Made by a program: the position numbers and the translations under genes. This document shows, piece by piece, positions 2,793-37,269 of a stretch of 40,884 bases of DNA. The DNA comes from a virus, in the UHGV virus genome UHGV-2008032; one strand, given 5' to 3'. The notes under the pieces were generated by a model. The model was not told the origin of the DNA. It saw only the letters and a program-made list of their open reading frames with translations, and searched no databases. The first letter of the stretch is position 1. Each line of letters begins with the position of its first letter.

Positions 2793-3956
2793 TCACGCGA
2801 TATTCACCAGTTCAGCAAAAGCGCCTTGTGCCATATTTGTGCCATTCCCCGCCAGAAATGAGTCGATTTGCATGGCATGCTGCGTCAGGTGATTCGGTGC
2901 CAGATGGGCATAACGCTGTACCATCTCGATACTTTCCCACCCGCCCATTTCCTGTAGCGCACTGAGTGGCACGCCGGACTGTACAAGCCAGCTTGCCCAG
3001 GTGTGCCGCAGGTCATGGAAGCGGAAATTTTCTATTCCCGCCCGCCTTAACGCTGCTCGCCATGCCGTGTTAGCATCAGACCGCATTTTGCGCACTGCCT
3101 TTGTTCTCGTTCCATCCGGGCGAACGGATGATTCAGTGTGAACAAAGACCCACCGGTTATGTTTCCCCAGCTGCTCCCGCAGCACCTTACAGGCCGATTC
3201 GTTCAGGGCGACCCCAATCGCCCTTCCTGCTTTCGCGTCCTCGGGGTGAATCCACGCGACCTTCCTCTGCATATCAATTTGTGACCACTCCAGATCGGTG
3301 ATGTTCGACCTGCGCAGCCCCGTCGCCAGTGCAAAAATAACAACTGGCTTCATATGCTCGGGAAGTTCCCGGATCAGGTTCGCCGCTTCCTCTTTGGTTA
3401 GCCAGCGAATACGCTTATTTTTCGGCACCGGGCATTTGATGTTCGGCGCCTTGGCTATCCATCGCCATTCGTTGGCCGCACATCGTAACAGCGCCCGGAT
3501 GAAAGCAAGGTGCGTCGCCTTCGTCGCCAGCGACGCTGGTTTATCCTTAAATTCAGGAACCGGCTTACCTCTTCGCAGCAGGCTGTCCCGTTTCGCCTCC
3601 CAGTTCATTCGATGTTTGCGATTAACCATCGAACTCACCGCCGACAAGATCCTGTCTTCCGTGATTGCTGACAGGTCCATTCCTTTGAAGTGCATTCTCC
3701 AGAATCCGATCCGGCTTTTGTCATCGTCCAGGCTTTTCTTGTGCTGCTTTTCGTTAAGCCAGCGAACGCACGCTTCATCGAACGTTCTCGGCTTAAACTC
3801 ACCCATCTTATCAACTCGCCATGCTTCAGCTTTCAGCTGATCATAGAGCTCCTGCGCTTGCCTTTTGTCCGTTGTCCCAAGAGACCGTCTAATTCGACTT
3901 CCACCAGGCGTAACGAAGTCGCAGTGCCACGTACCGGCACGTTGTTTGATTGACAT
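2793..3956 (-). CDS. int: Tyrosine integrase
   Basis: 387 aa; N-terminal arm-binding-like domain; C-terminal HDLRHTWAS ... VQRYAHL catalytic motifs; adjacent to att core. Confidence 0.9.
2827..2841 (+). repeat. Arm-type repeat TGTGCCATATTTGTG (P' arm, inside int 3' end), tandem with TGTGCCATT
   Basis: Exact copy of 2609..2623 on the other side of the core. Confidence 0.5.
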
Positions 3957-4180
3957 GCTTTAACCTCCTGCACATCAACCGCATTCACCGCGCTATTGTG
4001 TCTCACAGACTTAAGCGCCGCAATGCAGTCTGACTTGCAAATGCGATATGGGCTTTTAGGTTTATCTGGATTTATCTTTGCGGCCTGAAGTCGTCCACTT
4101 CGTATCCACTGCGTGATAGTGCCTTTGTCTACCTTCAGATACGATGCTGCCTCTTCACGAGTGAAGATTTCTTCTTCCAC
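3833..4180 (-). CDS. xis: Excisionase-like HTH DNA-binding protein
   Basis: GTG start at 4180 with GGAG 6 nt upstream; helix-turn-helix [25 protein letters not shown]; 3' end overlaps int start by about 120 nt. Confidence 0.5.
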
Positions 4181-4267
4181 TTGGAATCTCCATTTATTGA
4201 GTTGGTATTATTGCGGTAGGTCTGGATATCTTGAGAAATGAACAGGCCTCATCGAGTGTGAGGCGGG

Positions 4268-4612
4268 TTAGTCCTTGCGTAGCTCGCTAATTCTTCTGTA
4301 AGTCTCTGGTGCTTTGTTTCCGTGTATCTTCATTTCAGACTTCAACAGAGCAACGAGGGAATCCCATTCGTTGAGGATGCCTTTGAATGCCGGAACGCGC
4401 TTTGCAACCTTGTTGAATGAATCTCTGATTTCTGGAATCTGCTCAACAAGTGCAACGCATCGCCGAAAGTCTGCTGCGTCATGGGGAGCACCGAAGTAAT
4501 GACCATAGATATTCTTTTTCAGTCCACATGCGATTGAGGCAAGAGTTGCGCTACTGATGCCAACATCGCCAGTCGATTGCCATTTCAAAACCTTCATAGC
4601 CAAATCTGACAT
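4268..4612 (-). CDS. Hypothetical early protein
   Basis: Start placed at internal ATG 4612 with GGAGA 6 nt upstream; the longer ORF start at 4639 lies inside a terminator stem. Confidence 0.45.
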   Translation of the reverse strand: MSDLAMKVLKWQSTGDVGISSATLASIACGLKKNIYGHYFGAPHDAADFRRCVALVEQIPEIRDSFNKVAKRVPAFKGILNEWDSLVALLKSEMKIHGNKAPETYRRISELRKD

Positions 4613-4624
4613 TTCTTGTCTCCA

Positions 4625-4646
4625 ATAAAAAACCGCCATCAGGCGG
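4625..4646 (-). terminator. Intrinsic terminator within the leftward operon
   Basis: Stem CCGCC/GGCGG with 4-nt loop followed on the minus strand by a U-run (forward A-run 4625-4632). Confidence 0.4.
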
Positions 4647-4712
4647 CTTGGTGTTCTTTCAGTTATTCAATTCGAATATTGGTTACATTGTTTTCATATA
4701 TGAATAAATAAA

Positions 4713-4892
4713 TTAGCTTTTTTCGTTGCCTTCGCTTTCTTTATTAATTTTAACAAACTCGTTTTTACCACGCTCTCCAAATGCGTCTTTAGAGTCGTTG
4801 TATCCGCAATCGCAGCACACATAATCTCCAGACCATCCACGCATTGTTTTTTCTTTTGCAATATTTCCAGAACCGCATTTTGGACAAGACAT
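4713..4892 (-). CDS. Small zinc-ribbon protein (CxxC...CxxC)
   Basis: ATG 4892 with GGAGG 7 nt upstream; MSCPKCGSG...CCDCGYN cysteine pairs. Confidence 0.5.
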   Translation of the reverse strand: MSCPKCGSGNIAKEKTMRGWSGDYVCCDCGYNDSKDAFGERGKNEFVKINKESEGNEKS

Positions 4893-4988
4893 ATCACTAC
4901 CTCCAAAGCATGAGTGAGATGACAACGTAACATTGATTGGAGATTAACAATAGATTGCTGATGTAAAAGATATGTATAAGCTTCGCTT

Positions 4989-5555
4989 TCAAAGTGGAGG
5001 CTCTGGTAGCGGCATCCAGTGAGTTACGTCATCCAAGATATTTCCTGATAAATACGTGAAAGCTCTATATTTTTTGTAATCAATTGGATTTACAACCCAG
5101 TTCCAATATGCGGCCACGATTTCACCTTGACTAAATGCCAGTAACATTTTGGTTTCTTCCGGCATTCGCTCACTACAGCTTATCCAACCATCCGGAGTTA
5201 CCGGAGAGTTGCCCGATAGCTCGTTCAACTTGTAAGTTTGGCTTACGAGTTCGGCTTCCAGTTCTGCTATGCGCTTTTTTGCTGCTTCCAGCTCGCCAAG
5301 CAGCGCCAAGACGGTAGCCGGATTGGCTGCAGCGATGAATTCAGCATTGGCCTGCTGTTCCATTTGGAAATCTTCATCGAAACCGCTTTCAGGATGCGCT
5401 CCTTCAATTCTGCAAATGGGAAGATATCCAACAACGTCACGATGAATTAGCGCATCATCACAATCAAATCGGCTCTCTCCATATTCGAGCGACCACACCC
5501 CACACGTTGCTTTCTCTGCCGCTTCACGCAGTGCCTGATAGTCAATCTTGCTCAT
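4989..5555 (-). CDS. Ead/Ea22-like protein with C-terminal DUF551-like domain
   Basis: N-terminal ...YQALREAAEKAT...ANAEFIAAANPATVLALLGELEAAKKRIAELE pattern; C-terminal DGWISCSERMPEE...WMPLPEPP. Confidence 0.55.
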   Translation of the reverse strand: MSKIDYQALREAAEKATCGVWSLEYGESRFDCDDALIHRDVVGYLPICRIEGAHPESGFDEDFQMEQQANAEFIAAANPATVLALLGELEAAKKRIAELEAELVSQTYKLNELSGNSPVTPDGWISCSERMPEETKMLLAFSQGEIVAAYWNWVVNPIDYKKYRAFTYLSGNILDDVTHWMPLPEPPL

Positions 5556-5556
5556 G

Positions 5557-5856
5557 TCACATCACCCTGAATCCGTTGCATTTACGTAAGAAATCGCAGA
5601 TATAGCCCTTCATTTTTTCATGCCAATCTCGATCATTCCCATTGCACCACCCATCAGGTGGAGTCCAGTTTTCTATCAGAGCAGCCATTTTCTTTGCTTT
5701 CGCCGGAGTAGCTGTTGCGGTATCGCAGTAATGACGAGTGTCAACAAACTTATCCATGCCATCGATATCAAGTACGCAAAACCATGTGTGATTCGGAATT
5801 CCTACAGGTGGTATTTGTTGCCCACGTCGGCGTTTATCAATGAGATATACACTCAC
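5557..5856 (-). CDS. Hypothetical early protein
   Basis: 99-aa ORF abutting neighbours on the same strand. Confidence 0.4.
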   Translation of the reverse strand: MSVYLIDKRRRGQQIPPVGIPNHTWFCVLDIDGMDKFVDTRHYCDTATATPAKAKKMAALIENWTPPDGWCNGNDRDWHEKMKGYICDFLRKCNGFRVM

Positions 5857-6320
5857 TGGTTACCTCCTTTGCGAAGCTCTGCGGCGAACTCGTTAAGTGA
5901 TATGTAGCAATCTCCAAATGTTAACGAACCGCTCGACTGCATATGCTCCATAGCCATCTCCACGCCCTGCGCCCGTACTTCAGCCAGGAAAGCATCGGTG
6001 GCTGGGGTTTCAGTAACATCATCTTCCCATTCGCTAAACTCCTCACGACAAAAGTCATTAAATTCCTTCTCAGATTGCTTAAGCGAGGTATTTTCAGCAG
6101 CCATCTTCGCGCATTTAGCCTCAAGGTTATCAATCGTGATTCCAGCAGAACGACACTCCCGCAACGCCGTTTCTAGTTTTGATTCAAGTTCACCGAACTT
6201 ACGCACCAGATATTCAGCGTTTGTTTCGTTAACCTTTAAATCTCGGGGGATGCATTTACCTTTCAGAAAACCATCCATCTCAATTAGTGACATTTGTTTC
6301 ATTTCTTCCCACTCCGCCAC
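5853..6320 (-). CDS. Hypothetical early protein (coiled-coil-like)
   Basis: 155-aa ORF in the leftward operon with 4-nt overlap to the downstream gene. Confidence 0.4.
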   Translation of the reverse strand: MAEWEEMKQMSLIEMDGFLKGKCIPRDLKVNETNAEYLVRKFGELESKLETALRECRSAGITIDNLEAKCAKMAAENTSLKQSEKEFNDFCREEFSEWEDDVTETPATDAFLAEVRAQGVEMAMEHMQSSGSLTFGDCYISLNEFAAELRKGGNQ

Positions 6321-6458
6321 ATTGCATTCAGATATTTGTTGTCATTAACAGAACCGAAATATTTCTCTTAAGCAATTCCTCTCTCGATGGCATTGGCTTT
6401 ACGCGTTGGCGAATAATCATTTCTGCCGGAAGAATGCCGGGATTGTATGCAAGTCCTC

Positions 6459-6749
6459 TCATGATTTACTCTCCACGAACTGGTCAACGGCCATGCTAAG
6501 TGACACACCTAAAGTATCGATATGCTGCTGAATATCCTGTAGCGTCCGCGCTTGAGATAACAGAATTTCACGGTTGCATAACTCTTTAACCAGATGCTCA
6601 AACTTGCTGTAATAACCGATACGGCTTAGTGTTTCTTTCCCTGCATTCTCACCTTCTTTGATAATTCCTCTTTCGCTAAGAATCAGGTCGTGTTTGGTTC
6701 CGGTAATAACGTATTTGCCGAGGTCGATGTTTAGCTTCATTGTTTTCAT
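6459..6749 (-). CDS. Hypothetical early protein
   Basis: Start placed at ATG 6749 ([11 protein letters not shown]...) with GAGGAA upstream, just after the stop of the 6760..7056 gene; the longer track ORF would overlap it. Confidence 0.4.
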
Positions 6750-6759
6750 TGTTAATTCC

Positions 6760-7056
6760 TCAGTCATTACTGATAGCGCCATAGCGTGAGCGGTAATTAC
6801 GCAGGCGCGGGTCGATATATTCAGGGAAGTGGGTATATGTGGCTTTGCGGAATGGTCGGATTGATGTCTGGTAAATTCGCTCTCGTTCTTCTTTCTCTGC
6901 AAGCCATATACAGTGGCGAAATTCCTTTTCTTCTTTCGTTTCCTGCGGTAGCGACATTATCCGGTCGTAGTTTTTCCTGAATTTATCCAGCACCTCCGAT
7001 ACGGAATTGCCGGAACAGCGGCGCGCGTCGTCCGCACCATACAGAGGCGCTGGCAT
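6760..7056 (-). CDS. Hypothetical early protein
   Basis: 98-aa ORF in the leftward operon. Confidence 0.4.
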   Translation of the reverse strand: MPAPLYGADDARRCSGNSVSEVLDKFRKNYDRIMSLPQETKEEKEFRHCIWLAEKEERERIYQTSIRPFRKATYTHFPEYIDPRLRNYRSRYGAISND

Positions 7057-7069
7057 GATTTTCTCCTGA

Positions 7070-7585
7070 TTAAATTGCGTGAATAGCGTGACGAGGGAAG
7101 GGGAGGGTTACTGGCGCAAAAGGTATATCGTCGTCAAACTCCATAGGTGGTTCGCTGTGATTTACCTGCTTCTGAGGCTGCTGTTTTTGTTGCTGACCGT
7201 TATTTCGCTGAGGTGAAGACTGTTCATTGCTTCCTTGCTTGCCACCAAGCATTTGCATGGTTCCACCAACGCCCACGATAACTTCGGTAGTGAACCGATC
7301 CTGTCCGCTTTGATCCTGCCATTTTCTTGTCCGCAATTTTCCTTCAAGATAAACCTCAGAGCCTTTTCGCAGATATTCGCTGGCAATTTCTGCCAGTTTC
7401 CCGCTCATTACCACACGGTGCCACTCCGTCTGCTCCTTTTGCTCTCCAGTTTGCTTATCACGCCATTGTTCTGACGTAGCAACTATAAGGTTTGCAAATG
7501 CCGTTCCTGATGGTGAATATCTGATTTCTGGATCATGCCCAAGGCGACCAATAATGATCACCTTATTTACGCCTCTACTTCCCAT
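7070..7585 (-). CDS. ssb: Single-stranded DNA-binding protein
   Basis: OB-fold-like N-terminus, Gly/Gln-rich linker, acidic C-terminal tail DDDIPF. Confidence 0.85.
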
Positions 7586-8293
7586 TTATGCCGCCTGTTT
7601 TAGTTCGTTAACTCTGATGTTCATTACCTGAACGCATTTAGCCTGCGCATCCTCATTGCCAGCCATTAATTGCCAGTCATGCTGATAACGTTCTATGAGT
7701 TTTTTCTTGTCAGTTTCTGTTGATGCATAATCGCTGAAGTCTTTCAGGATTTGTTCGCAGTCAACCGATGGAGATTTCTGGTTGGTATTTTCTGGTGATG
7801 GTTTGTTATCTGATGCTGGGATTGCCCAGCCCGGCAGCGATGGAGGGAGCCAGTAAAATCCTGTTCCATCCTTCAGTTTTGCCCTGTGCCACCCCTGTTT
7901 TTTATCGGGAGATGTTTGTGCGAAACCTTCCTCAAGGTTATACAGATACCGACCGATTCCCCACTGAACGGCAGCGCGCTTCATTGCACCGGAACGACCA
8001 CCTTTGACGGCTTCTACCTGCGTGTTTTCAGCAGCATCCCATTTGGTTACCCATTCGGAATCAATCTTTATTGATATGCCGCATTCAACGCCGCCGTTGT
8101 TGGGAATATCGCGGTATTCATTGCGCCATCCTGCTTTGCCACAAACATCGTCAAGGCGTTTCATGATTGCCCGGTTCGTAACATAAGCCAGCACCATAGC
8201 CCACACCTTGCCATCGCGTGTTTTACCGCTTTGCTGTATTCGCCATTCGATATCTTCAGGGCAGAATGGCTCATCGAATTTGTTCAAATCCAT
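7586..8293 (-). CDS. Single-strand annealing recombinase, Rad52/Sak-like
   Basis: Motifs ...GKAGWRNEY...SGAMKRAAVQWGIGRYLY resemble Rad52-family annealing proteins; immediately upstream of ssb. Confidence 0.55.
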   Translation of the reverse strand: MDLNKFDEPFCPEDIEWRIQQSGKTRDGKVWAMVLAYVTNRAIMKRLDDVCGKAGWRNEYRDIPNNGGVECGISIKIDSEWVTKWDAAENTQVEAVKGGRSGAMKRAAVQWGIGRYLYNLEEGFAQTSPDKKQGWHRAKLKDGTGFYWLPPSLPGWAIPASDNKPSPENTNQKSPSVDCEQILKDFSDYASTETDKKKLIERYQHDWQLMAGNEDAQAKCVQVMNIRVNELKQAA

Positions 8294-8392
8294 AATTCAC
8301 CTCAGAATGGACATGGCCCAAGGAAATAACGCTGGTTTAATACTTCGACTCGGGACAAATTAAGGCATACCCGCATTCCTTCGCGGTCACCA

Positions 8393-8551
8393 TTATGGCG
8401 ATACCAGAGAGCTTTCTGCGTGTACATGCGTCTCTGTAACTTGCTCTCCTTCACTGTGGTTGCAAGTGACATGAATATCTCCTTCGTTACCGATTAATTC
8501 TTTCATCTGACGAATGAATTCTTCGTCTGACCAGTTATCTGTAAAACTCAT
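8393..8551 (-). CDS. Small hypothetical protein (52 aa)
   Basis: Hand-translated; ATG overlaps upstream stop (ATGA); below the ORF-track size cut-off. Confidence 0.3.
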   Translation of the reverse strand: MSFTDNWSDEEFIRQMKELIGNEGDIHVTCNHSEGEQVTETHVHAESSLVSP

Positions 8552-8700
8552 TTCCTGCGATACCACGGAATGTTGATCGCTGATTTCATCGCTTTATTTG
8601 CTTCAAGCCACATTTTGGAATCACCAATAAATCTGGCTATTACTGCTTTGTTCTGTGCAGCACGAAGCATCTGGTGATTGATGGCTATTTCATTGCGCAT
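8548..8700 (-). CDS. Small hypothetical protein (50 aa)
   Basis: Hand-translated; GGAGG upstream; stop overlaps next start (ATGA). Confidence 0.3.
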   Translation of the reverse strand: MRNEIAINHQMLRAAQNKAVIARFIGDSKMWLEANKAMKSAINIPWYRRK

Positions 8701-8819
8701 AACGCCTCCAGTTGTTTCTTTGCTGCTCTGATTAATTGTTTAACTCGGCGTGATAATTCAGATTCGTGCGGGTAGAAAGCGGACATGACGCCGCTACCCG
8801 CGAGCTGAAAGTGCATCAT
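8685..8819 (-). CDS. Small hypothetical protein (44 aa)
   Basis: Hand-translated; AGGAG 6 nt upstream of ATG. Confidence 0.3.
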   Translation of the reverse strand: MMHFQLAGSGVMSAFYPHESELSRRVKQLIRAAKKQLEALCAMK

Positions 8820-8902: not shown

Positions 8903-9151
8903 CTACTCTATTTCTTCTTCGAATGATTTTATTAGTCGGTCAATAACATCATCCGTTTCAATATCATTTCCGTCTGATTGCTTTAATACATCTATTGATT
9001 CTGCAGCGGTAAATTCCATCGCTGTGAGAAACTCGACAATTGCACACTCAACGACATATCGTTCTTCATCTGTACGACATGAGATAAAAGAGCATTTAAT
9101 TGCTGTTATTACTTTTTGTTTAAGCTCTGCAGGGTAATCAGTTTTTATCAT
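8903..9151 (-). CDS. Small acidic early protein (82 aa)
   Basis: Strongly acidic C-terminal half (...DGNDIETDDVIDRLIKSFEEEIE); first gene after a leftward terminator. Confidence 0.5.
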   Translation of the reverse strand: MIKTDYPAELKQKVITAIKCSFISCRTDEERYVVECAIVEFLTAMEFTAAESIDVLKQSDGNDIETDDVIDRLIKSFEEEIE

Positions 9152-9785: not shown

Positions 9786-10058
9786 TTACCTGGCTGTCAG
9801 TTGTTTTGATTTCCGGTAGCCTGCCGAGTAAATGGCTACGTTTGGCAGGCAAATACTTCCACTGCATTCTTCTGCCTTCTTGCAGCGAAGGCTTCCTAGT
9901 GATGCTGCTTTATCTGCTCTGACGCAACCAGAGAGCTTTAGCGCAATTTTTCGTGACAATCGCTGTTCTTGCATTGCCTGTTCACGTTGAGCCTGTCTGC
10001 GTGCTCTGCGGCGATTTCTGGCGTTATCGTCAGCCAGATATGTAATGACTACTGTCAT
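9786..10058 (-). CDS. N-like antitermination protein (arginine-rich motif)
   Basis: N-terminal NARNRRRARRQAQREQ arginine-rich motif; first gene downstream of PL and nutL, the position of lambda N. Confidence 0.5.
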   Translation of the reverse strand: MTVVITYLADDNARNRRRARRQAQREQAMQEQRLSRKIALKLSGCVRADKAASLGSLRCKKAEECSGSICLPNVAIYSAGYRKSKQLTAR

Positions 10059-23591: not shown

Positions 23592-25214
23592 ATGCCGTTA
23601 CCATTTCCCTTCGATTTTAAACATCCTGATTACCAGATGGTTTTTGAATGGCGGATGGAACGCTTACAGCGCATTCGCCAGAACCCTGAAATATTGCCAG
23701 CACTAAAACAGTTTTACCGAACCAACCCGGCTCAGTTCATCATCGACTGGGGCATGACAACGGACCCGCGTAATATTGATTATGGCCTGCCGGTGACCAT
23801 TCCGTTTTTACTCTTCCCTAAGCAGGAGGAGTGGATCCACTGGATTATGGAACGCTGGGGCAATCGGGAGAATGGTATTACCGAAAAATCCCGTGAAATG
23901 GGACTCAGTTGGACCGCGATCGGACTGGCCTGCTCGCTTTGTCTCTTCAACAAAGAAATGGTCATCGGCTTCGGCTCCCGTAAAGAGGAATACGTCGACA
24001 GCACCGGTGACCCGAAGGCGCTGTTCTGGAAGGCGCGAAAGTTCGTGGAAACACTGCCCATCGAGTTTCGTGGTTCGTGGGACGAGAAGAAGCATGCGCC
24101 GTATATGCGCGTTGAGTTTCCAGATACTGGCGCGGTTATCAAAGGCGAGGCTGGCGACAATATCGGACGTGGTGACCGTACCACGCTCTACCTGGTGGAT
24201 GAAGCTGCATTCCTCCAGCGTCCTCTGTTGATTGATGCGGCGCTGTCGCAAACCACCCGTTGCCGTATTGACCTGAGCTCGGTTAATGGCATGGCGAACC
24301 CGTTCGCGCAGAAGCGCCACGGCGGAAAAATACCAGTATTCACGTTCCACTGGCGAGATGACCCGCGCAAGGATGAAGAGTGGTATCGCAGGGAGTGCGA
24401 GAAAATCGACAATCCGGTGGTGGTGGCGCAGGAACTTGACCTGAACTACAGCGCATCTGCGGAAGGCGTCCTGATCCCGTCCGACTGGGTACAGGCTGCC
24501 GTCGACGCGCATATCAAACTTGGTATTCAGCCAACGGGCAAGCGACTGGGCGCGATGGACGTCGCCGACGAAGGCAGGGACAAAAATTCCTTTTCCACCC
24601 GTCATGGCTTCCTCCTGGAGAATGTGCGGGAATGGTCCGGTGTGGGCAGCGACATTTATCAGTCCGTCGAGAAGGTCTTCGGTTTTTGCGAACAGGACAA
24701 CCTCGAAGAGTTTCGCTTTGACGAGGACGGGCTGGGCGCTGGCGTTCGCGGCGATGCACGCGCTATCAACGAACTGCGTAACGCTGCGCGCCGACCGTCA
24801 ATACTCGCCACACCGTTTCGAGGTAGTGGCGCGGTATTTGATCCGGATGATGAAGCTATTCGCGGGGACAACGGGCAAGCCGCCCGCCTGAACAAGGACT
24901 TCTTCGCTAACGCCAAGGCCCAGAGCTGGTGGCGGTTACGTAAACTTTTTCAGAATACCTGGCGCGCCGTGGTTGAAGGTATGGCTTACAACCCGGACGA
25001 AATCATCTCAATCAGCAGTAGCATGGCACTCAAAGATAAACTCATCATCGAGCTTTCGCAGCCGACCTATTCCATTAATGGTGTGGGAAAAATCGTTATT
25101 GATAAACAGCCTGACGGCACCAAGTCGCCGAACCTCGCCGACTCGGTGATGATCAGCTACGCGCCAATGAATTCAGCCCTGAACATCTGGGAGCTGCTAG
25201 GGAGACAGGCCTGA
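23592..25214 (+). CDS. Terminase large subunit
   Basis: 540 aa between small terminase and portal; acidic nuclease-like C-terminal region. Confidence 0.75.
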
Positions 25215-26680
25215 TGGCACGAAACAAGCAAGCCTCTCAGCGAACGGCGCAGGCCACCGCTGATGGCTACGAGAACTTTGTCGCCCGCGTGGGGATGCAG
25301 ACGCCTAACCAGCATTCAGCATCGACCTACCGGGCGAACTTCACCAGCCGCAACCGCATGCTGGTGGAATGGTCCTATCGTTCGTCCTGGATCATCGGCG
25401 AAGCGGTCGACGCTATCCCGGATGATATGACCCGCAAAGGCATTCGCATTACTTCGGAAATTGATGCAAAAGATCGCGGCATTCTCGAATCACAACTTGA
25501 TGAGTTGCAGATCTGGGATGCGCTGAACGACGTGCTGAAATGGTCTCGCCTCTACGGCGGCGCGGTCGGCTTCATCATGATCGAGGGGCAGGCACCAATG
25601 ACCCCGCTGCGGCTCGAAACCATTGGAGAAGGCAAGTTTAAGGGCATTCTCCCGCTTGACCGCTGGATGATTAACCCGGTGCTGACCCGTCGCATTAAAG
25701 AGATGGGGCCAGATCTCGGCAAACCTGAGTTTTACGACGTGGTGACCACTGCAACGGGCATCCCGGCCTGGCGCATCCATCACAGCCGCCTGATTCGCTT
25801 CGACGGGGTGACGCTACCATTCCAGCAGAAGATGACCGAAAACGAATGGGGAATGTCGGTTGTAGAGCGTATCTGGGATCGGCTTACTGCGTTCGACAGC
25901 GCCACTGTCGGCGCGGCGCAGCTTGTCTACAAAGCGCATCTGCGTACCTACAAAGTGAAAAAACTCCGTGAGCTTATTGCGCTGGGTGGCCCCGCGTTCG
26001 AAGCGCTGCTGAAGAACATCGATCTGATTCGCCAGTTCCAGAGCAATGAAGGCATGACGCTGATGGATTCCGAAGATACTTTCGAAACCCACCAGTACAG
26101 CTTCAGTGGTCTGGATGACATTCTTTCGCAGTTCGCTGAGCAGATCAGCGGTGCCGTTGGTATCCCGCTGGTACGCCTGTTCGGTCAATCCCCGAAAGGC
26201 TTCTCTACTGGTGATGCAGACCTCGCCAACTATTACGACCGGGTGAGTTCATTGCAGGAGCGCCGCTTACGGATTCCGATGCGCCGGATACTGGACATTA
26301 TGCACCGCTCGGAACTCGGTAAGCCGCTGCCGGACGATTTCACGTTTGAGTTTAACCCGCTCTGGCAAATGTCTGATGTCGATCGCTCAACGGTGGCGTT
26401 AAACACTACCAACGCAATCAGTACGGCGCTGGGTGATGGTCTGATGACACTGAAAGCCGCTATGACCGATTTGCGCGAAAATTCTGACGTAACCGGCATC
26501 GGGGCATCCATTACCGACGAGGACATAGAGAATGCCGAAGACGAAGCGCCGCCAGGCATCGGCGAACTTGGCGACAAACCGCCAGAGTCGCCAGGCGGAG
26601 ATCCGATATCGAACGAGCCTACGGCAGATAGCGCGGGCGGTCGGGGATATCGTAAATGGGCGCTACGATGGTTCAAATGA
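25214..26680 (+). CDS. Portal protein
   Basis: 488 aa after the large terminase; disordered acidic/Gly-rich C-terminus. Confidence 0.65.
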   Translation: MARNKQASQRTAQATADGYENFVARVGMQTPNQHSASTYRANFTSRNRMLVEWSYRSSWIIGEAVDAIPDDMTRKGIRITSEIDAKDRGILESQLDELQIWDALNDVLKWSRLYGGAVGFIMIEGQAPMTPLRLETIGEGKFKGILPLDRWMINPVLTRRIKEMGPDLGKPEFYDVVTTATGIPAWRIHHSRLIRFDGVTLPFQQKMTENEWGMSVVERIWDRLTAFDSATVGAAQLVYKAHLRTYKVKKLRELIALGGPAFEALLKNIDLIRQFQSNEGMTLMDSEDTFETHQYSFSGLDDILSQFAEQISGAVGIPLVRLFGQSPKGFSTGDADLANYYDRVSSLQERRLRIPMRRILDIMHRSELGKPLPDDFTFEFNPLWQMSDVDRSTVALNTTNAISTALGDGLMTLKAAMTDLRENSDVTGIGASITDEDIENAEDEAPPGIGELGDKPPESPGGDPISNEPTADSAGGRGYRKWALRWFK

Positions 26681-27305
26681 TAGCGTTACCGAAATAATGG
26701 ATGCGCTGGAGCGCTACAGCGAAATCATCACCCCCTGGGCGACTAAGGTTGCTGAGAGCTTCACCGCCGACATTGCGCGCCAGAATGAAAAGCAGTGGCG
26801 TCAACACAGCCGGAACATCAGCGCAGAGCTGCGCAACATGGTTGACCGCGCCCCGGTAGGCCAGGTGATGAAATCCATCGTCGCCGAGCAAATTAAGTAC
26901 ATCAAATCTCTGCCTCTTGAGGCCGCCGATCGGGTGTATGACATTCAGAACAAGGCCATCGAGGCCGTTGTGTCTGGTGGCCGCGCTGAACCATTCGCGA
27001 AAGAGATAGCAGCGTCCGGTGACGTGTCACGCTCACGAGCGAACCTTATCGCCCGGACTGAGCTTGGGCGCGCAACCGGCGCGCTCGATCAGGCGCGTGC
27101 GCTGTCAATCGGCTCGAATGGTTATATCTGGCGTACAGCCGAAGATGGCGACGTCCGGCATTCTCATCGAGAGATGGAAGGGAAGTTTGTCGAATGGGGC
27201 CGACCTCCAACGCTTGACGGCATGACCGGTCACGCTGGCGAGCTCCCGAACTGCCGCTGTTACAAAGAAATCGTCTTCCCCAACCCTCATTCTTATCTCG
27301 CCTGA
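26532..27305 (+). CDS. Head morphogenesis protein, Mu F-like
   Basis: C-terminal ...LIARTELGRATG...DGDVRHSHREMEGKFV...HAGELPNCRCYKE... MuF-like; start 26532 has GAGGA upstream but overlaps the portal by 149 nt. Confidence 0.6.
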   Translation: MPKTKRRQASANLATNRQSRQAEIRYRTSLRQIARAVGDIVNGRYDGSNDSVTEIMDALERYSEIITPWATKVAESFTADIARQNEKQWRQHSRNISAELRNMVDRAPVGQVMKSIVAEQIKYIKSLPLEAADRVYDIQNKAIEAVVSGGRAEPFAKEIAASGDVSRSRANLIARTELGRATGALDQARALSIGSNGYIWRTAEDGDVRHSHREMEGKFVEWGRPPTLDGMTGHAGELPNCRCYKEIVFPNPHSYLA

Positions 27306-27319
27306 ATCGCAGGTAAACC

Positions 27320-28540
27320 ATGAAATATTTTTTCAATACCCGGCTGGGGGAAACCCGCTATCAGCTGGCTGACGGCTCGTTGCTGTGCAAAGACGTGCCG
27401 ATAGGACGAACAGGTAAGCAGCTCTATGGTGCTGATGACCTGCCAAAACTGAAACCCGATAAGTTCGGTGAAATAGTCGTCACGCGTTCTCCTGAGCAGG
27501 TATTCCATCCCGCCACGCTTGCCTCATTCGAAGGAATGAGTATCACGGTGTTGCATCCCGAGGATGAAAACGGGGATGTGCGGCTGGTCAACCCCGAGAA
27601 CTGGAAAGAGCTTGCGGTCGGGCATCTTCAGAACGTTCGGCGCGGGACTGGTGATCAGTCTGATTTGATGCTGGCTGACCTTATCGTCAAAGACGAAAGC
27701 GCCATTCAGCTTATCGAAGATGGCCTGCGTGAAGTGTCGTGTGGCTATGACGCGGAGTACGAGCAGACCGAGCCAGGTAAAGCCGAGCAGGTCGATATTA
27801 CCGGAAACCATGTGGCTCTTGTCCCTAAAGGCAGAGCCGGAAATCGTTGTGCAATTGGAGACAGAGACACAATGGCAAATCAAAAGAAAAGCTGGTGGAC
27901 CCGCATGCGCACGGCCATCAAAACGGGTGACGCTGACACCATGAACGAACTGCTGGACTCTGCGCCAGCGGCGGTAACGGGTGACGAAGGGGATCTGCCG
28001 AGCGGCGTTAACCTCAACATTAACCTTTCACCGCAGCAACCATTGCCGGACAAAAAGCCGGAAATGGGCGGAGAGCCAACCGGCGACGGCGAGGACGATA
28101 TCAAAACCTTGCTTAAAGCCCTGCTGGCTAAGCTGGAAGGAAATGCGACGGGCGATAACGACAATAAGCCTGACGATAATCCGACCGGTGACGGCGAGGA
28201 CGATGAAGAGGAAACCACGATTACTGGTGACTCAGCCTGGCGTGCCGAAGTTATCGTTCCGGGTATCGATCTGAGCCGTAAGATGAAACCGACCGCGTTC
28301 AAACGCGAGGTTCTGGCTTCCGCTGACAAAACGCTGGTTCGCCAGATAGTCGGCGATGCGGATATCCGCAAATTGCCGAAACAATCGGTCAACATGGCGT
28401 TTAATGCCGTGTCAGAGATTGCCAAAGGGCGAAACACCCGCAGCACCACGGGCGATGCACAACGTCCAAATATGGGCATGACCAGCATCGCTTCCCTGAA
28501 CAAACAAAACGCCGACTTCTGGTCTAACCGCAAAGGATAA
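27320..28540 (+). CDS. Putative head scaffolding/maturation protein
   Basis: 406 aa with a long acidic low-complexity middle region, between MuF-like and capsid genes. Confidence 0.45.
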   Translation: MKYFFNTRLGETRYQLADGSLLCKDVPIGRTGKQLYGADDLPKLKPDKFGEIVVTRSPEQVFHPATLASFEGMSITVLHPEDENGDVRLVNPENWKELAVGHLQNVRRGTGDQSDLMLADLIVKDESAIQLIEDGLREVSCGYDAEYEQTEPGKAEQVDITGNHVALVPKGRAGNRCAIGDRDTMANQKKSWWTRMRTAIKTGDADTMNELLDSAPAAVTGDEGDLPSGVNLNINLSPQQPLPDKKPEMGGEPTGDGEDDIKTLLKALLAKLEGNATGDNDNKPDDNPTGDGEDDEEETTITGDSAWRAEVIVPGIDLSRKMKPTAFKREVLASADKTLVRQIVGDADIRKLPKQSVNMAFNAVSEIAKGRNTRSTTGDAQRPNMGMTSIASLNKQNADFWSNRKG

Positions 28541-28544
28541 TCCA

Positions 28545-29048
28545 ATGACTGCATATCTGTACCGGATGCCTGTTGGCATTGCCGGGGCTATCTCTCGCCC
28601 GCAGGACTTAACCGTCGAACCGGTGGTCCTTAAATCCGATAACGCCTTTGCTGCCTATGGGCTGGCTGGTAAATACGATGATGACGGTTTTTTCGTGCCG
28701 CTGGAGGACGGTGACACCGCCGACAAGGTGAAGGGGATCTACGTTCGTCCGTATCCGACCACATCGCAGCCAGACATGGTTCGCCAGGTGGGGACGGATA
28801 AGAATTTCCCGGGCGACGCCATGAAACGTGGCTACATGACCGTTAACCTTGGATCTGGCTTCGATGCCAGCACCATCAAAAAAGGTGATCCTGTCTACGT
28901 GGTCGTTTCGCTCGATTCAACCATTGACGTGCCGCTGGGCGGCTTCATGTCCACGTCCGTCAGTGGCAAAAACGTGGCGCTGACCAACGCCGAATTCACA
29001 GGGGCCGGTGACGCTAACGGCAATGCAGAAATCTCCTGGAAGATTTAA
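28545..29048 (+). CDS. Putative capsid decoration or accessory head protein
   Basis: 167 aa immediately upstream of the major capsid gene. Confidence 0.35.
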   Translation: MTAYLYRMPVGIAGAISRPQDLTVEPVVLKSDNAFAAYGLAGKYDDDGFFVPLEDGDTADKVKGIYVRPYPTTSQPDMVRQVGTDKNFPGDAMKRGYMTVNLGSGFDASTIKKGDPVYVVVSLDSTIDVPLGGFMSTSVSGKNVALTNAEFTGAGDANGNAEISWKI

Positions 29049-29059
29049 GGAACAGACGA

Positions 29060-30001
29060 ATGATTACTTTTGATCAGGCAACAGTTGATAGCTCTGGTGC
29101 CTTTCTCATCGGGGAGCTGGAGCGACTCGACCAGACGCTGAACCTGCCACTGGTGGGGTACACCTGGACCCGCGATATCCAACTGCGTGAAGATGTCTCC
29201 ATCGCAGATGACATTTCCAGCTGGACGAATACCAGCTTCGCCGCTGCGGGTACTGGCGCAAATCCGAATGGCAAAAACTGGGTAGGCAAAGACTCAACCG
29301 CTATTGCTGGCGTAAACGTGGATATCGGCAAATCCGGTAACCCGCTGAATCTCTGGGGCATGGAACTGGGCTGGACCGTTGTAGAGCTGGCAGCAGCTCA
29401 GCAGGTAGGTCGCCCGATTGACACCCAGAAGTACGACGGGATGCAGCTCAAATGGCAGATGGACAACGACGAGCAGGTGTATGTTGGCGATTCCGCATTA
29501 AACCTGAAAGGCCTTGTTACCCTGAACGGTGTTCCTGTCAACAACGCTGCCAAAACGTGGGCAACCTCAACACCGGACGAAATCCGCGCAAGCATTAACC
29601 AGGTGCTGTCTGATGCGTGGGCCGCTTCTGGTTACTCTGTGGTTCCGCGTGATTTGCTGATCCCGCCAGAGCAGTTTGCTCTGTTGTCCAGCATCATCGT
29701 TTCATCTGCGGGTAACCAGTCCCTGTTGACGTACCTTCAGACCAACACCATCAGCTATCACCAGAACGGTGTTCCGCTGAATATCCGCGCGGTTAAATGG
29801 CTGAAAGGCCGTGGTGTGGGGAATAAGGATCGCATGGTTGCGTACACCAACGATAAAAAATACGTCCGCTATCCGCTGGTGCCGTTGCAGAGCGTTCCTA
29901 TCCAGTATCGCGGTCTGTATCAGATTGCGACCTACTACGGCAAGCTCGGTGCGGTTGAGCCAGTGTACAAAGAAACCATTTCGTACGTTGATGGCATTTA
30001 A
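29060..30001 (+). CDS. Major capsid protein
   Basis: 313 aa in the expected position; followed by a strong GC hairpin. Confidence 0.6.
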   Translation: MITFDQATVDSSGAFLIGELERLDQTLNLPLVGYTWTRDIQLREDVSIADDISSWTNTSFAAAGTGANPNGKNWVGKDSTAIAGVNVDIGKSGNPLNLWGMELGWTVVELAAAQQVGRPIDTQKYDGMQLKWQMDNDEQVYVGDSALNLKGLVTLNGVPVNNAAKTWATSTPDEIRASINQVLSDAWAASGYSVVPRDLLIPPEQFALLSSIIVSSAGNQSLLTYLQTNTISYHQNGVPLNIRAVKWLKGRGVGNKDRMVAYTNDKKYVRYPLVPLQSVPIQYRGLYQIATYYGKLGAVEPVYKETISYVDGI

Positions 30002-30007
30002 CAGCCA

Positions 30008-30027
30008 TATGGCCCCCTTGCGGGGCC
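30008..30027 (+). promoter_or_regulatory. Stable hairpin just after the capsid gene
   Basis: 8-bp stem ATGGCCCC/GGGGCCAT with loop TTGC; no U-run. Confidence 0.4.
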
Positions 30028-30042
30028 ATTAAGGATGACCCA

Positions 30043-30264
30043 ATGGCAAAAAATAATGCAGTAATACACGTACATACCCCGTTTGTGCTCACGCTTCCCG
30101 ACGGTTCGCGGCGCGAGTTTGTTAAAGGCCGTCATGCAGTGGAGGAAGACGTTGCCACGCACTGGTTCACTCGTGCGCACGCGGAAGTATCCGTTGGCAA
30201 AGCCACAGACGCGCGTAACGAGGTAAAAAATGCCAAAGAATCAAAGTCTGCCAACGGTAAGTGA
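30043..30264 (+). CDS. Small head-associated hypothetical protein
   Basis: 73 aa; AAGGA 8 nt upstream of ATG. Confidence 0.4.
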
Positions 30265-30637
30265 TTTTCGCCGCGACTTCCCGCAGTTTGTTGACCCTGC
30301 CAAATATCCCGAAGCGCAAATCCAGTTTCGTCTGAATCTGGCCGATGAACTGCTGAGCGAAAACGTCACCGGCAAAAAGTTGTTTCCGTACTTTGCCGGG
30401 TTGTTCGTTGCGCACTACATGACGCTCTGGGCGGCAGACAGCAGAGCGATGCTGGCTGGTGGTCCGGGCGGTTCAACCAATGGTGTTCAATCCTCTAAGT
30501 CCGTTGACAAGGTAAGCGTCAGCTATGACACCAGCGCGACGCTGAATCCTGATGCAGGTTTCTGGAATAACACCCGATATGGCGTTGAATTTTATCAGTT
30601 GATCACGATGTTCGGTGCAGGTGGTCGCCAGCTATGA
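30230..30637 (+). CDS. Head-tail connector/adaptor-like protein
   Basis: 135 aa; GAGGT upstream of ATG; position between capsid and tail genes. Confidence 0.4.
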
Positions 30638-31188
30638 GTTTCAAAAGCGGTGTAACAACGAGGGTGGATAACGCTAAGGCCATTCTGGATGCGCTCAGGT
30701 CGCTAACCAAAAAGGATGTGCTGGTCGGCATCCCTTCGGAAGACAGCGAGCGTGAAGATGTTCAGTTTGGTAATGCCGGGATCGGCTATGTCAACGAATA
30801 CGGCTCACCAGCGCAAAACATCCCCCCACGCCCGCACCTGACCCCCGGCGTTAAATCGGTAGAGGAACAGACAGTGCCGCAGCTCAAAGCAGCGGCGCAG
30901 GCTGCGCTTGATGGAAATGCGGTGGGGGCGGAAAGAGCGCTCAACCGTGCCGGAACGCTGGCCGCTAATGGCGTCAGGCGTTACATGACTATTACCGGCT
31001 TTACACCGCTTGCTGATAGCACCGTTGAAGCCCGCGCACGTCGAGGTCGCAAAGGGGCGAAAGCTGAGCTTGCCCGACGCGCTGCTGGTGAGTCTCCTGG
31101 AACCGATCTGGTGAAACCGCTAATCGACACCGGGCAATATCGCAGAGCTATTACCCATATTGTGAGGGATAAAGATGCCGACTCTTGA
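30634..31188 (+). CDS. Head-tail joining hypothetical protein
   Basis: 184 aa, overlapping-stop arrangement typical of morphogenesis operons. Confidence 0.4.
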
Positions 31189-31561
31189 TGTAACAGACGT
31201 GCTTTTTGACCCCGATTTTTGCGACTTCAACCTGTGGGTAACGCGTCGCGCGCAAACGGTGGACGATGACGGGATCGGCAGCGACAGCGAAGTTAAAACG
31301 CAGTTTGCCGGGGTTGTTACTGTTGACCGCTCCCTGGAAAACCGCCGCATGCAGGCCGGGCAGGTTATCAGCGGCGCGATTCTCATCGTGACAACTGAGC
31401 GGCTGACACAGGGGCAGACTGGCCGTGATGCCGATATCGTGACGTATCAGGGCCGTGATTATCGTGTGACATTCGTCGACCCGTATACCGCTTACGGTGC
31501 TGGCTTCGTCCAGGCGCATTGCGAACTGTTGCCGTTTGATGGGGGTACTCCCGTTGAGTAA
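31175..31561 (+). CDS. Head-tail joining hypothetical protein
   Basis: 128 aa, overlaps neighbours. Confidence 0.4.
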   Translation: MPTLDVTDVLFDPDFCDFNLWVTRRAQTVDDDGIGSDSEVKTQFAGVVTVDRSLENRRMQAGQVISGAILIVTTERLTQGQTGRDADIVTYQGRDYRVTFVDPYTAYGAGFVQAHCELLPFDGGTPVE

Positions 31562-32102
31562 TAACACCAGCACAGAGCGCGGCTGGCTGACACCCACCAG
31601 CGGCGATCCGGCTTATGACGAAGCGCTCGACAGGCTGTTAAGCCAGTGGATGCGTAACGTTTCCGGTCTGTCTGCCGGGATGGTTCGTCCGCGCTGGCAG
31701 AAAAATCAGCCGCCACTGCCACCCGTTGAAACGAACTGGTGCGCGTTTGGCGTTACCGGGTTGCTCATTGATAACAACCCTGCATTCACCGGGCAGACTG
31801 AAGAGGGCGCTCAGCTCTGGAGGCATGAAACGTTCGAGTGCATGGCGTCGTTCTATGGTCCGGCGGGGATGGTGTATGCGTCCCGGTTTCGTGACGGTAT
31901 ATCTGTACCGCAGAACAACGCAGCACTGAATGCGCTGGGGCTGTCTCTTGGCGATTACACAGGTCTGACTCCCTTCCCCGAACTTATCAACCAGCAATGG
32001 GTTCGCCGTTACGACATGACGGTGCGACTGCGCCGGAAGGTTGTCCGCGAGTATGGCATCAAATCGCTGGTGGAAGTGCCAGTCACCTTTTTTGGAGAAT
32101 AA
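31539..32102 (+). CDS. Tail completion-like hypothetical protein (start uncertain)
   Basis: ORF frame from 31497; ATG 31539 or TTG 31554 are the plausible starts. Confidence 0.35.
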   Translation: MGVLPLSNNTSTERGWLTPTSGDPAYDEALDRLLSQWMRNVSGLSAGMVRPRWQKNQPPLPPVETNWCAFGVTGLLIDNNPAFTGQTEEGAQLWRHETFECMASFYGPAGMVYASRFRDGISVPQNNAALNALGLSLGDYTGLTPFPELINQQWVRRYDMTVRLRRKVVREYGIKSLVEVPVTFFGE

Positions 32103-32105
32103 ACT

Positions 32106-33266
32106 ATGACGCAGGGCTTACCTGTATCCAACGTTGTAAACGTTGATGTGATCATCTCGCCGAAAGCGGCTACTGGTCGTAACTTCGGCGCATTGCTAAT
32201 CCTTGGCTCTTCCACTGTCATTCCGGTGACAGAACGTACTCGCCTATATGCTTCCATTGAGGACATTGGCGAAGACTTCGGTGTCGACAGCCCGGAATAT
32301 AAAGCAGCGCAGGTTTTCTTCAGCCAGTCACCGAAGCCGACACAGGTTTATGTTGGTCGCTGGGCGAAGACGCTGAGTTCTTCCGAGAGTGGAGATACTG
32401 AAACTATCGTGCAAGCCGTTAATGCCTGCCTGCAATATACCAACTGGTATGGGCTGGTTGTCGCTGATGATGTTGTCGCTGGTGGCGATGTGCTTGATGC
32501 TGATGACGTGATTGAGGTTGCTAAACTCATCGAAGCGTCCAGCCTGAGCCGCATTTTCGGGGTAACATCTGCTGACGCCGAGATTATCAGCACGACTTCG
32601 ACGACTGATGTTGCGTCGAAATTAAAGGCTGGCAAGTATTCCCGTACCTTTGTTCAGTATTCCACCAGCAGCCCTTATGCGGCTGTTTCAGCTTTCGGTC
32701 GCGCGTTTACTGTCAATTTCAACGGCAGCAATACCACCATTACCCTGAAATTCAAACAGGAACCGAGCGTAACCTACGAAACGCTGACGGTAGGACAGGC
32801 GGCGGCTGTGGATGCGAAGAATGCGAACGTGTTCGTGTACTACGCCAACGACACGGCGATCCTGCAACAGGGCGTCATGGCGAACGGTGACTTCTTCGAC
32901 GAGCGCCACGGGCTCGACTGGTTGCAGAACTACGTTCAGACCAACCTCTATAACCTGCTTTACACCAGCACCACCAAAATTCCGCAGACTGATGCCGGTG
33001 TGACCCGTCTGCTTTCCAACGTTGAACAGTCCATGGATCAGTCCGTCACGAACGGTCTGGTAGCGGCTGGCGTGTGGAATGGTGGACCTATCGGACAGCT
33101 GAATTCCGGCGATACGCTGACCAAAGGTTATTACGTGTATGCGCAACCTCTTTCAGAACAGGCGCAGGCCGACCGAGAAGCTCGCAAAGCACCGTTAATT
33201 CAGGTGGCCTGTAAGCTGGCTGGCGCAGTTCATTATGCCGATGTGCAGATCAACGTGGTTCGCTAA
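32106..33266 (+). CDS. Tail sheath protein
   Basis: 386 aa immediately upstream of the tube gene. Confidence 0.55.
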
Positions 33267-33276
33267 GGAGCGATAA

Positions 33277-33717
33277 ATGGCAACTTATTCTTTTCTCGAT
33301 GTAACCGCGTCGCTCACCGGGCCGACCGGCGTTATCGATCTTGGTCAGGGTTCTGCCAACTCTGAGGAAGGTATCACCCAGACCATGGGCGGCAACAAGA
33401 ACACTATGACCATCGGTGCCGATGGCGAAGTGATGCACAGCCTGCACGCCGATAAGTCAGGCACCATTACGGTGACGCTGCTGAAAACCTCCCCGGTGAA
33501 CAAGAAGCTGTCTCTGGCGTATAACGCGCAAAGCCAGTCCTCTGCCACCTGGGGCAATAACGTGATCGTCATTCGCAACACGGCATCGGGTGATATTTCT
33601 ACTGCGCGTTCGTGCGCATTCCAGAAACAGCCTGATTTCAATAACGCCAAAGAGGGCGGGACTGTTTCCTGGGTGTTCGACTGCGGCAAGATTGACCAGC
33701 TGCTCGGGGAGTTTTAA
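33277..33717 (+). CDS. Tail tube protein
   Basis: 146 aa between sheath and chaperone genes. Confidence 0.55.
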   Translation: MATYSFLDVTASLTGPTGVIDLGQGSANSEEGITQTMGGNKNTMTIGADGEVMHSLHADKSGTITVTLLKTSPVNKKLSLAYNAQSQSSATWGNNVIVIRNTASGDISTARSCAFQKQPDFNNAKEGGTVSWVFDCGKIDQLLGEF

Positions 33718-33720
33718 CGC

Positions 33721-34146
33721 ATGGAATTCGAAATTAAAGGCGTGAAATATCGCACCGCAAAGCTCAGCGTTTTCGAACAGCTGAAGGTGTCCCGCAAGCT
33801 GTTGCCGGTGCTGGCCGGGATGGTTTCTGACTTTCGGAGCGTTCAGGAGAAGATCAGCAGCAAAGACACCGAAGGCGCGATGGCTACCATCCTGCCAAAG
33901 ATTGCCAATGCTGTGTCCGATCTGAGCGATGGCGACGTGGACGCTATCCTGTTCCCCTGCCTTTCCGTTGTTTCACGCGAGCACATGAAAGGCTGGGTGC
34001 CGGTCTGCCAGCATGGCGAAATGGCGTTTGACGATATCGACCTGCTGACCATGCTGCAACTGGTGGCGCGGGTGGTCGCCGACTCGCTGGGAAATTTTTT
34101 GCAAGGACTCCCTACCAGCGAGACGCCCACCCCGCCAGCGGAATAA
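33721..34146 (+). CDS. Tail assembly chaperone (zero-frame product)
   Basis: 141 aa directly upstream of the tape measure gene; contains a slippery heptamer near its 3' end. Confidence 0.6.
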   Translation: MEFEIKGVKYRTAKLSVFEQLKVSRKLLPVLAGMVSDFRSVQEKISSKDTEGAMATILPKIANAVSDLSDGDVDAILFPCLSVVSREHMKGWVPVCQHGEMAFDDIDLLTMLQLVARVVADSLGNFLQGLPTSETPTPPAE

Positions 34147-37267: not shown

Positions 37268-37269
37268 AA

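Follow-up and report, generated by a model that had tools for sequence, protein, structure and literature searches.

A probable ea-type accessory segment of exchangeable cassettes between xis and ssb in the lambdoid phage genome UHGV-2008032

Introduction

Which genes does a lambdoid temperate phage keep between xis and its recombination genes, and how many of them are directed at the host? This question is raised by UHGV-2008032, a virus genome of 40,884 nucleotides (the window, to whose full length all coordinates below refer), in which positions 4268-7056, between xis and ssb, had been described in an earlier note as a block of seven uncharacterised early-left genes, equivalent to a region that in lambdoid phages is a hotspot for host-takeover and anti-defence functions. 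Here we examined this block and found that it is very probably the distal, non-essential "ea" accessory segment in the early-left operon of a lambdoid temperate phage. We are similarly confident that its cassettes can be exchanged independently of one another and form a patchwork, the joints of which are short conserved sequences that lie mostly at gene starts or ends.

Results

Gene order and gene content of the block

All credible genes of 4268-7056 lie on the minus strand, and this run of eight open reading frames (ORFs) fills the gap between xis and ssb. On one side the block is flanked by int (2793-3956) and xis (3833-4180) and on the other by ssb (7070-7585) and erf (7586-8293), the latter encoding a Rad52/Erf protein (88.5 bits). 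Upstream on the same strand follow a Gp33-like gene (8393-8551), kil (8548-8700), cIII (8685-8819), an anti-restriction-like gene (8903-9151) and an N-like antiterminator gene (9786-10058), beyond which lies a cI-type repressor gene. Because of these same-strand upstream genes we place the block at the far end of the early-left operon, which would be transcribed leftwards from the N-type antiterminator via cIII, kil, erf and ssb towards xis and int.

In P22, HK620, Sf6, HK75 and HK446 the ea regions have a matching gene order. The P22 series xis-eaC-eaG-eaA-eaI-eaD-eaF-orf45-eaE-orf56-abc2 has the same position, orientation and flanks, HK620 hkaD-hkaJ and Sf6 genes 19-25 are the counterparts of the block, and relative to lambda the block takes the position of the exo-xis region. 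The proposed equivalence with the early-left region of lambdoid phages is thus borne out by synteny with P22.

Gene calls were refined by ribosome-binding sites, starts of homologues and overlaps, and gave the following features:

o1: 4268-4612, minus strand, 114 amino acids, phrog_1229 family
boundary element: 4623-4686, minus strand, 64 bp, between o2 and o1, holds a terminator-like hairpin
o2: 4713-4892, minus strand, 59 amino acids, zinc ribbon, EaG
o3: 4989-5555, minus strand, 188 amino acids, Ead/Ea22 plus DUF551
o4: 5557-5856, minus strand, 99 amino acids, DUF7739
o5: 5853-6302, minus strand, 149 amino acids, EaE / HK97 gp37 / HkaH / Oad2 family
o5b: 6328-6462, minus strand, 44 amino acids, DUF2737, frameshifted
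o6: 6459-6749, minus strand, 96 (or 93) amino acids, DUF5405
o7: 6760-7056, minus strand, 98 amino acids, abc2

The ORFs of the earlier note are therefore real and on the minus strand, and their number rises from seven to eight with the DUF2737 ORF at 6328-6462, which had been overlooked. Four starts had been set too far upstream, as judged from ribosome-binding sites and homologues, and were moved from 4639, 4925, 6320 and 6902 to 4612, 4892, 6302 and 6749 (or 6740). The description of five proteins as lacking recognisable motifs was overstated, since DUF7739, DUF5405, the EaE/Oad2 family and Abc2 were all recognised and only the product of 4268-4612 is without Pfam family. Nor does "uncharacterised" fit a block in which o7 is a characterised recombination-module gene, o5b is frameshifted and three more genes belong to named families. 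No plus-strand ORF of at least 60 codons within the block matched any PHROG family, and an Rfam scan of the whole window returned no family at gathering score. What we observed directly on the block comprises its gene calls, the assignment to families, the synteny and the mosaic structure.

Mosaic structure among related loci

No phage record covers at least 80% of the block, the best being Huey with 59%. Among 5426 complete Escherichia coli genomes, 3569 carry some part of it and 2 carry at least 80% (best coverage, 88%). To follow the cassettes separately, we counted them over 80 viral loci whose Abc2 is at least 98% identical, so that abc2 is present in 80/80 by construction. DUF2737 was found in 71 of these loci, Ea22/DUF551-like genes in 65 and o5-like genes in 52; o1 and o6 were each found in 19, o4 in about 13-14 and o2 in 10.

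DNA coverage among the 80 loci steps sharply at gene edges, and both o6 (6464-6745, between abc2 and DUF2737) and o4 (5555-5851) behave as exact gene-sized insertions. Several islands are shared more widely than their flanks, namely the first ten codons of o3, the start of DUF551 (5161-5204), the o5 motif ETPATDAFLAEVRAQ and the element 4623-4686, which is present in about 53 of the 80 loci while its flanking genes occur in 8-20 only. Compared with published phages, o5 reaches 78% identity at best, the halves of o3 reach 82-83% and the other cassettes 92-100%, with most values at 93-100%.

With P22, HK620 and Sf6 the block shares EaG (93-100%), orf56/HkaI, Abc2 (92-97%), an EaE/HkaH-type protein, the Ead/Ea22 N-terminus, the DUF551 tail, Sf6 gp22 (97%) and Sf6 gp24 (96%), together with the same conserved boundary sequences. 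It differs from P22 in that the phrog_1229 gene stands in place of eaC and ssb in place of abc1, and in the frameshift of DUF2737. The block is thus a known kind of mosaic accessory region, and its novelty is limited to the combination of cassettes.

The mosaicism extends beyond the block. P22 is a podovirus, whereas the virion genes here are myoviral: those at 23592-38334 share 92.6% identity with Citrobacter phage Omnitron and are similar to those of the myoviral vB_EcoM phages and Salmonella phage SEN34. The early-left genes (4000-8300) have near-identical counterparts in P22-like podoviruses and HK97-like siphoviruses, and the genome is therefore a mosaic across morphotypes.

o7 is identified as abc2

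The gene next to ssb gave the strongest assignment. Over its residues 1-98 the o7 product matches PF11043 at profile positions 1-97 with 203.6 bits (cut-off 25; E 4.1e-61), and it also matches phrog_656, "abc2 anti-RecBCD" (E 2.3e-56), and the PDB entries 8b1t/8b1u, "Anti-RecBCD protein 2" (E 1.8e-55), again over residues 1-98 and end to end with 8b1t_A. Identity to P22 Abc2 is about 92% over the whole 98 residues; both proteins belong to the same Pfam family and both genes lie beside that of an Erf-type annealing protein, the differences being a few substitutions near the C-terminus (THFPEY versus TKFIE). Here o7 adjoins the annealing-protein module, in the order erf (7586-8293), ssb (7070-7585) and abc2 (6760-7056). 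The abc1 gene of P22 is absent and an SSB gene is found instead, as in HK620, Sf6 and HK75.

P22 Abc2 binds the Chi-recognition region of RecC and modifies RecBCD (PMC9836394), and it is functionally part of the recombination module (PMC9836394; PMC5928155). On the strength of its sequence o7 is abc2, encoding a putative P22-type RecBCD modifier that would belong functionally to the erf-ssb-abc2 recombination module. By analogy with the 92%-identical P22 protein, it would bind RecC and re-purpose RecBCD for the phage Erf recombinase.

The neighbouring SSB has an unusual end. The ssb gene (7070-7585) encodes 15 residues beyond the acidic tip ...EFDDDIPF (C-terminus at 7070-7117), and the last 14 of these are identical to the C-terminus of the HNH endonuclease that Sf6 and Huey encode between abc2 and ssb; the SSB proteins of these two phages end directly after IPF. 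Most related loci (29 of 39) have the extended form, as does HK75 gp31. Stimulation of the HK620 recombinase depends on the final six residues of its SSB (PMC5928155), and a masked tip was therefore not expected.

o5 is a candidate inhibitor of OLD

The o5 gene encodes an acidic coiled-coil protein of 149 residues, whose start at ATG 6302 was taken from HK620 and Huey. It is 78% identical to HK620 HkaH, 71% to HK75 gp28 and 64% to P22 EaE over 58 residues. Along its whole length (residues 1-149 against 1-175) it is 56% identical to HK446 gp27, named Oad2 (E 6e-56). The motifs MKQM..., EAKCAxLAAEN, ETPATDAFLAEVRAQ and QLRKGGNQ, which span the N-terminal, central and C-terminal parts, are common to o5 and the family.

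A preprint of July 2026 reports that Oad2 directly binds and inhibits the OLD nuclease of P2, an abortive tRNase that is switched on when RecBCD is compromised, and that Oad2, a relative of P22 EaE, can be found as a fusion with Ead/Ea22 proteins (bioRxiv 10.64898/2026.07.10.737580). According to the same work, Gp33, a protein of 56 amino acids encoded upstream of erf, suffices to trigger the toxicity of P2 OLD (bioRxiv 10.64898/2026.07.10.737580). The first 64 residues of o5 and Oad2 are nearly identical, with two substitutions, and the C-terminal QLRKGGNQ is common to both, whereas the middle and C-terminal part of o5 is a different variant. The local order abc2-gp29 (DUF5405)-gp28 (DUF2737)-gp27 (oad2) of HK446 is the same here, and both phages carry a Gp33-type OLD-trigger homologue upstream of erf. 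In UHGV-2008032 this homologue (8393-8551, minus strand, 52 amino acids; phrog_2123, E 6.6e-42) has, by inspection, the same first 45 residues as HK75 gp33 and a different tail. We regard o5 as a candidate anti-OLD, and thus anti-defence, protein whose activity cannot be assumed. If active, it would bind and block an abortive nuclease of the OLD type (ABC-ATPase/TOPRIM), a system that is set off when RecBCD is disturbed by phage proteins.

Two further observations concern these upstream genes. The Gp33-like gene overlaps a second small gene (8302-8472, phrog_1723), as Sf6 genes 29 and 30 do. Between cIII and the N-like antiterminator, the minus-strand ORF 8903-9151 (82 amino acids) matches phrog_14587, "anti-restriction protein" (E 2e-48), at the position of HK446 gp36, and is another counter-defence candidate of the same operon.

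o3 combines an Ead/Ea22 N-terminus with DUF551

The fusion described in the earlier note was confirmed at 4989-5555, with both domains above their gathering cut-offs: PF13935 at residues 2-102 (80.9 bits, cut-off 27) and PF04448 (DUF551) at residues 123-187, over positions 1-67 of the 68 in the profile (76.8 bits, cut-off 22). The protein is acidic and consists of an Ead/Ea22 N-terminal region and a coiled-coil region, with the heptad-like ELEAAKKRIAELEAEL visible in the sequence. It is a chimera, in which residues 1-102 are 83% identical to HK620 HkaG and residues 101-188 are 82% identical to the product of a separate gene, Huey CDS0023. An "Ea22 V2" architecture consisting of Ead_Ea22 plus DUF551 has been described for Stx phages (PMC10834534), and o3 shares with it the N-terminal signature, the heptad-rich linker, a swappable C-terminal domain (here DUF551) and the place between recombination genes and xis. 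Similarity to lambda Ea22 is weak (26%, E 6e-4), and the C-terminal domain of lambda Ea22, of which a nuclear magnetic resonance structure is known, is absent from o3. By analogy with the Ea22 proteins of lambda and Stx phages, o3 may be an oligomeric coiled-coil modulator that biases the lysis-lysogeny decision.

The exo-xis genes of lambda modulate this same decision (PMC7093339, PMC10834534), and the whole block might be made of such modulators of development and host physiology, which, like the lambda genes ea22, ea8.5 and orf60a/61/63/73, would tune lysis-lysogeny, prophage induction, or host replication and transcription instead of acting against immunity. We consider this possible but doubtful. 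It agrees with the exo-xis position of the block, with the presence of an Ea22-family protein, Ea22 favouring lysogeny in lambda and Stx phages, and with the occurrence of DUF551 in YfdS of CPS-53, which is linked to oxidative-stress resistance. However, apart from the weakly similar Ea22 and a 64-bp junction, no counterpart of a lambda exo-xis protein is present, and the best-supported functions of the block, those of Abc2 and the Oad2 homologue, have to do with nucleases and immunity of the host.

DUF7739, DUF5405 and a frameshifted DUF2737

Among the remaining named families, o4 matches PF24881 (DUF7739) at residues 3-93 with 68.4 bits (cut-off 27), is 97% identical to Sf6 gp22 and is near-identical to HK75 gp27. 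The o6 product passes PF17399 (DUF5405) marginally, at 23.7 bits against a cut-off of 21.6, and this Pfam tag is found on many of its homologues as well; its identity to Sf6 gp24 is 96%, and it is near-identical to HK446 gp29. The label "Replication initiation protein" (phrog_154, copied into some RefSeq records) was rejected, since we found no likeness in fold or sequence to a known replication initiator.

That o4 and o6, together with o1, EaG and DUF2737, are in most or all cases specific inhibitors of host immunity, each suited to a defence that some hosts carry, so that the block would be a dedicated anti-defence island, is a reading to which we give limited credence. The presence of these cassettes is highly variable among loci with near-identical abc2, they adjoin a RecBCD modifier, an Oad2 homologue and an OLD-trigger homologue, and the recombination-linked region has been called a likely reservoir of anti-immunity genes (bioRxiv 10.64898/2026.07.10.737580). 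However, none of the five cassettes matches a known anti-defence family: PADLOC and NCBIfam searches with all eight block proteins gave noise only, and PDB sequence searches with o1, o2 and o6 were empty as well. The o4 product is basic (isoelectric point 8.65), which argues against a DNA mimic; the DNA-mimic and immunity folds DMP12, CdiI and YfbM were considered for it, and its structure prediction gave no convincing fold match. Furthermore, six short peptides, representing six block proteins, were not found in the supplementary files of an accessory-gene screen (PMC12373910).

The ORF o5b is the equivalent of P22 orf56, HK620 hkaI and HK97 gp38, and matches PF10930 (DUF2737) with 68.9 bits over profile positions 1-34 of 53 only. 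DNA alignment with HK620, Huey and Sf6 revealed a 1-bp deletion, such that the reading frame is lost after residue 34 and ends after 10 out-of-frame residues at a stop. DUF2737 is intact, at full or near-full length, in 69 of the 80 related loci. The ATGA overlap with the o6 stop is kept in o5b and the coupling to o5 is lost.

This frameshift could be taken to mean that the block is mostly decaying filler, carried along by recombination after its ORFs have outlived their function, and many database homologues of o1 and o6 are indeed chimeric or partial. We hold this to be very improbable: the other seven ORFs are intact and have good ribosome-binding sites, the families keep their length and invariant residues down to 42-60% identity (about 30% for o1), and two of the seven intact ORFs give confident AF2 models.

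The zinc-ribbon gene o2 and a competing frame

A CxxC zinc-ribbon protein had been read in the block, and such a protein is encoded by o2 (4713-4892), whose 59 residues include four cysteines arranged as CxxC...CxxC, with the ribosome-binding site GGAGG before ATG 4892. It is 100% identical to HK620 HkaD and 93% identical to P22 EaG, an identity by which we equate it with these two proteins. PDB sequence searches with o1, o2 and o6 returned nothing significant. Lar, the restriction alleviation protein of the Rac prophage, is likewise a small CxxC...CxxC zinc ribbon from a lambdoid early region and gave the best Pfam hit of o2. Membership in the Lar family was rejected, with both models below their cut-offs (PF14354, 23.1 versus 28.6 bits; TIGR03655, 14.9 versus 39.6 bits). 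The similarity between o2 and the "Lar-like" gp20 of Sf6 is limited to the cysteine motif, and a literature search on P2 orf83 and Lar yielded nothing bearing on the block genes.

A minus-strand frame of 79 amino acids (4694-4933) overlaps o2, matches phrog_2945, takes the place of the zinc-ribbon frame in the annotation of phage Huey and is open in all ten distinct homologous sequences that we compared. We rejected it as coding, since it lacks a Shine-Dalgarno sequence, its second codon positions bear most of the substitutions and all of its homologues are at least 90% identical. The zinc-ribbon frame alone finds diverged homologues (73% and 47% identity), and the phrog_2945 profile appears to mix translations of both frames.

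o1 belongs to a widespread early-phage family

The last gene before xis, o1 (4268-4612), encodes a basic protein of 114 residues (isoelectric point 9.4), with a ribosome-binding site GGAG 8 nt upstream of ATG 4612. It belongs to phrog_1229 (E 5.7e-51) and is 97% identical to Huey CDS0021. A word-based search found enterobacterial relatives only; an exhaustive profile search returned 2841 representative clusters (at 50% identity) at E<=1e-3 and 643 at E<=1e-10. Comparison of 59 members with 29-61% identity revealed the invariant residues S20, P43, D45, D48, R51, C52 and W83, which form the family signature S...P-D-x-x-D-x-x-R-C...W. No Pfam, NCBIfam or PDB match was found for o1, its 59 compared members were likewise without Pfam match, ten diverse members gave nothing in Pfam at E<=10, and a PDB profile search with the family found nothing significant. 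An N-terminal helix-turn-helix, suspected from G-x-SS-x-T, was unsupported, the Pfam searches being empty.

Close relatives of o1 keep their place beside int/xis in Citrobacter prophages whose recombination modules differ, and distant ones lie in early, replication or recombination neighbourhoods, among which a conserved partner was not found. Of the fusions in the family, one is with a CCA-adding tRNA nucleotidyltransferase and the rest are with unannotated extensions, a record too thin to build on. Among our side results this widespread early-phage family is the one most worth retaining, as a candidate for curation and for a screen of its function.

Just upstream of the o1 ribosome-binding site, a terminator scan identified an intrinsic-terminator-like hairpin (4630-4649), GCCGCC-TGAT-GGCGG followed by a T-run. 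It lies in the boundary element 4623-4686, which is 97-98% identical to lambda 29102-29165 and to P22, where annotation assigns the hairpin to the antisense aI RNA as its terminator. Because o1 sits downstream of this hairpin, its expression may need antitermination. P22 eaC (3876-3892 in locus L086) has the same ribosome-binding site and the same two initial codons, ATG TCA, as o1 (4606-4622), the proteins being otherwise unrelated, and the recombination junction of these cassettes therefore lies just inside the coding sequence.

Transcription signals

A scan of 3800-7700 with a crude consensus test found no sigma-70 promoter-like site, versus 6.3 +/- 2.3 in shuffled sequence, which fits read-through from an upstream promoter. 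Overlaps of the kind that couple translation were found at o6/o5b and o5/o4. In the same interval we counted 8 terminator-like hairpins, versus 4.0 +/- 1.7 in shuffled sequence.

These signals bear on whether the block consists of morons expressed from the prophage, or of superinfection-exclusion genes, that benefit the lysogen. The block does adjoin the int/xis end of the prophage, a frequent site of morons, and the terminator-like hairpin precedes o1. Against this stand the lack of promoter-like sites, the shared strand with the tight or overlapping spacing of early-left genes and the absence of PADLOC hits, and we give the idea hardly any weight.

Discussion

Our results describe 4268-7056 as the cassette-built end of an early-left operon, and the hotspot that had been proposed for it is partly supported: one gene has a known function directed at a host nuclease (abc2), one has a reported anti-defence homologue (o5) and one belongs to a family that modulates lysis and lysogeny (o3). 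The literature on Abc2, Oad2 and the lambda exo-xis region favours such a role, whereas within the block we infer an anti-defence function for one gene only; nor do all the genes fall into conserved housekeeping functions of phages. Biochemical activities in UHGV-2008032 are in every case ones that we infer.

Several points weigh against this account. The closer relative of o5 is the HK75 protein (71%) rather than Oad2 (56%), and the anti-OLD assignment is uncertain because this HK75 homologue was reported to be insufficient for inhibiting OLD defence (bioRxiv 10.64898/2026.07.10.737580); in addition, the Oad2 work is a single preprint. The promoter scan is no proof of a single transcript, and the structure predictions for DUF5405 and DUF7739 found no convincing fold match. 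Finally, from the DUF2737 frameshift it follows that at least one cassette may be decaying, or that the sequence may contain an error. We propose only tentatively, and as an unlikely combination, that o5 is an active inhibitor of shifted specificity, directed at an ABC-ATPase/TOPRIM nuclease of the OLD, Gabija or PARIS type other than the one that HK446 Oad2 blocks, and that at least one unannotated cassette, chiefly the phrog_1229 gene, encodes a new protein of counter-defence or host takeover.

Nothing in the block would surprise a specialist, and the same cassettes occur nearly unchanged in well-studied phages, where they are easier to test. Its value is that of a worked example: downstream of abc2, lambdoid phages exchange their genes in gene-sized units at conserved junctions, and early-left cassettes move between otherwise different phages. 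The region also brings together a RecBCD modifier, an OLD-trigger homologue and, as their partner, a homologue of an OLD inhibitor.

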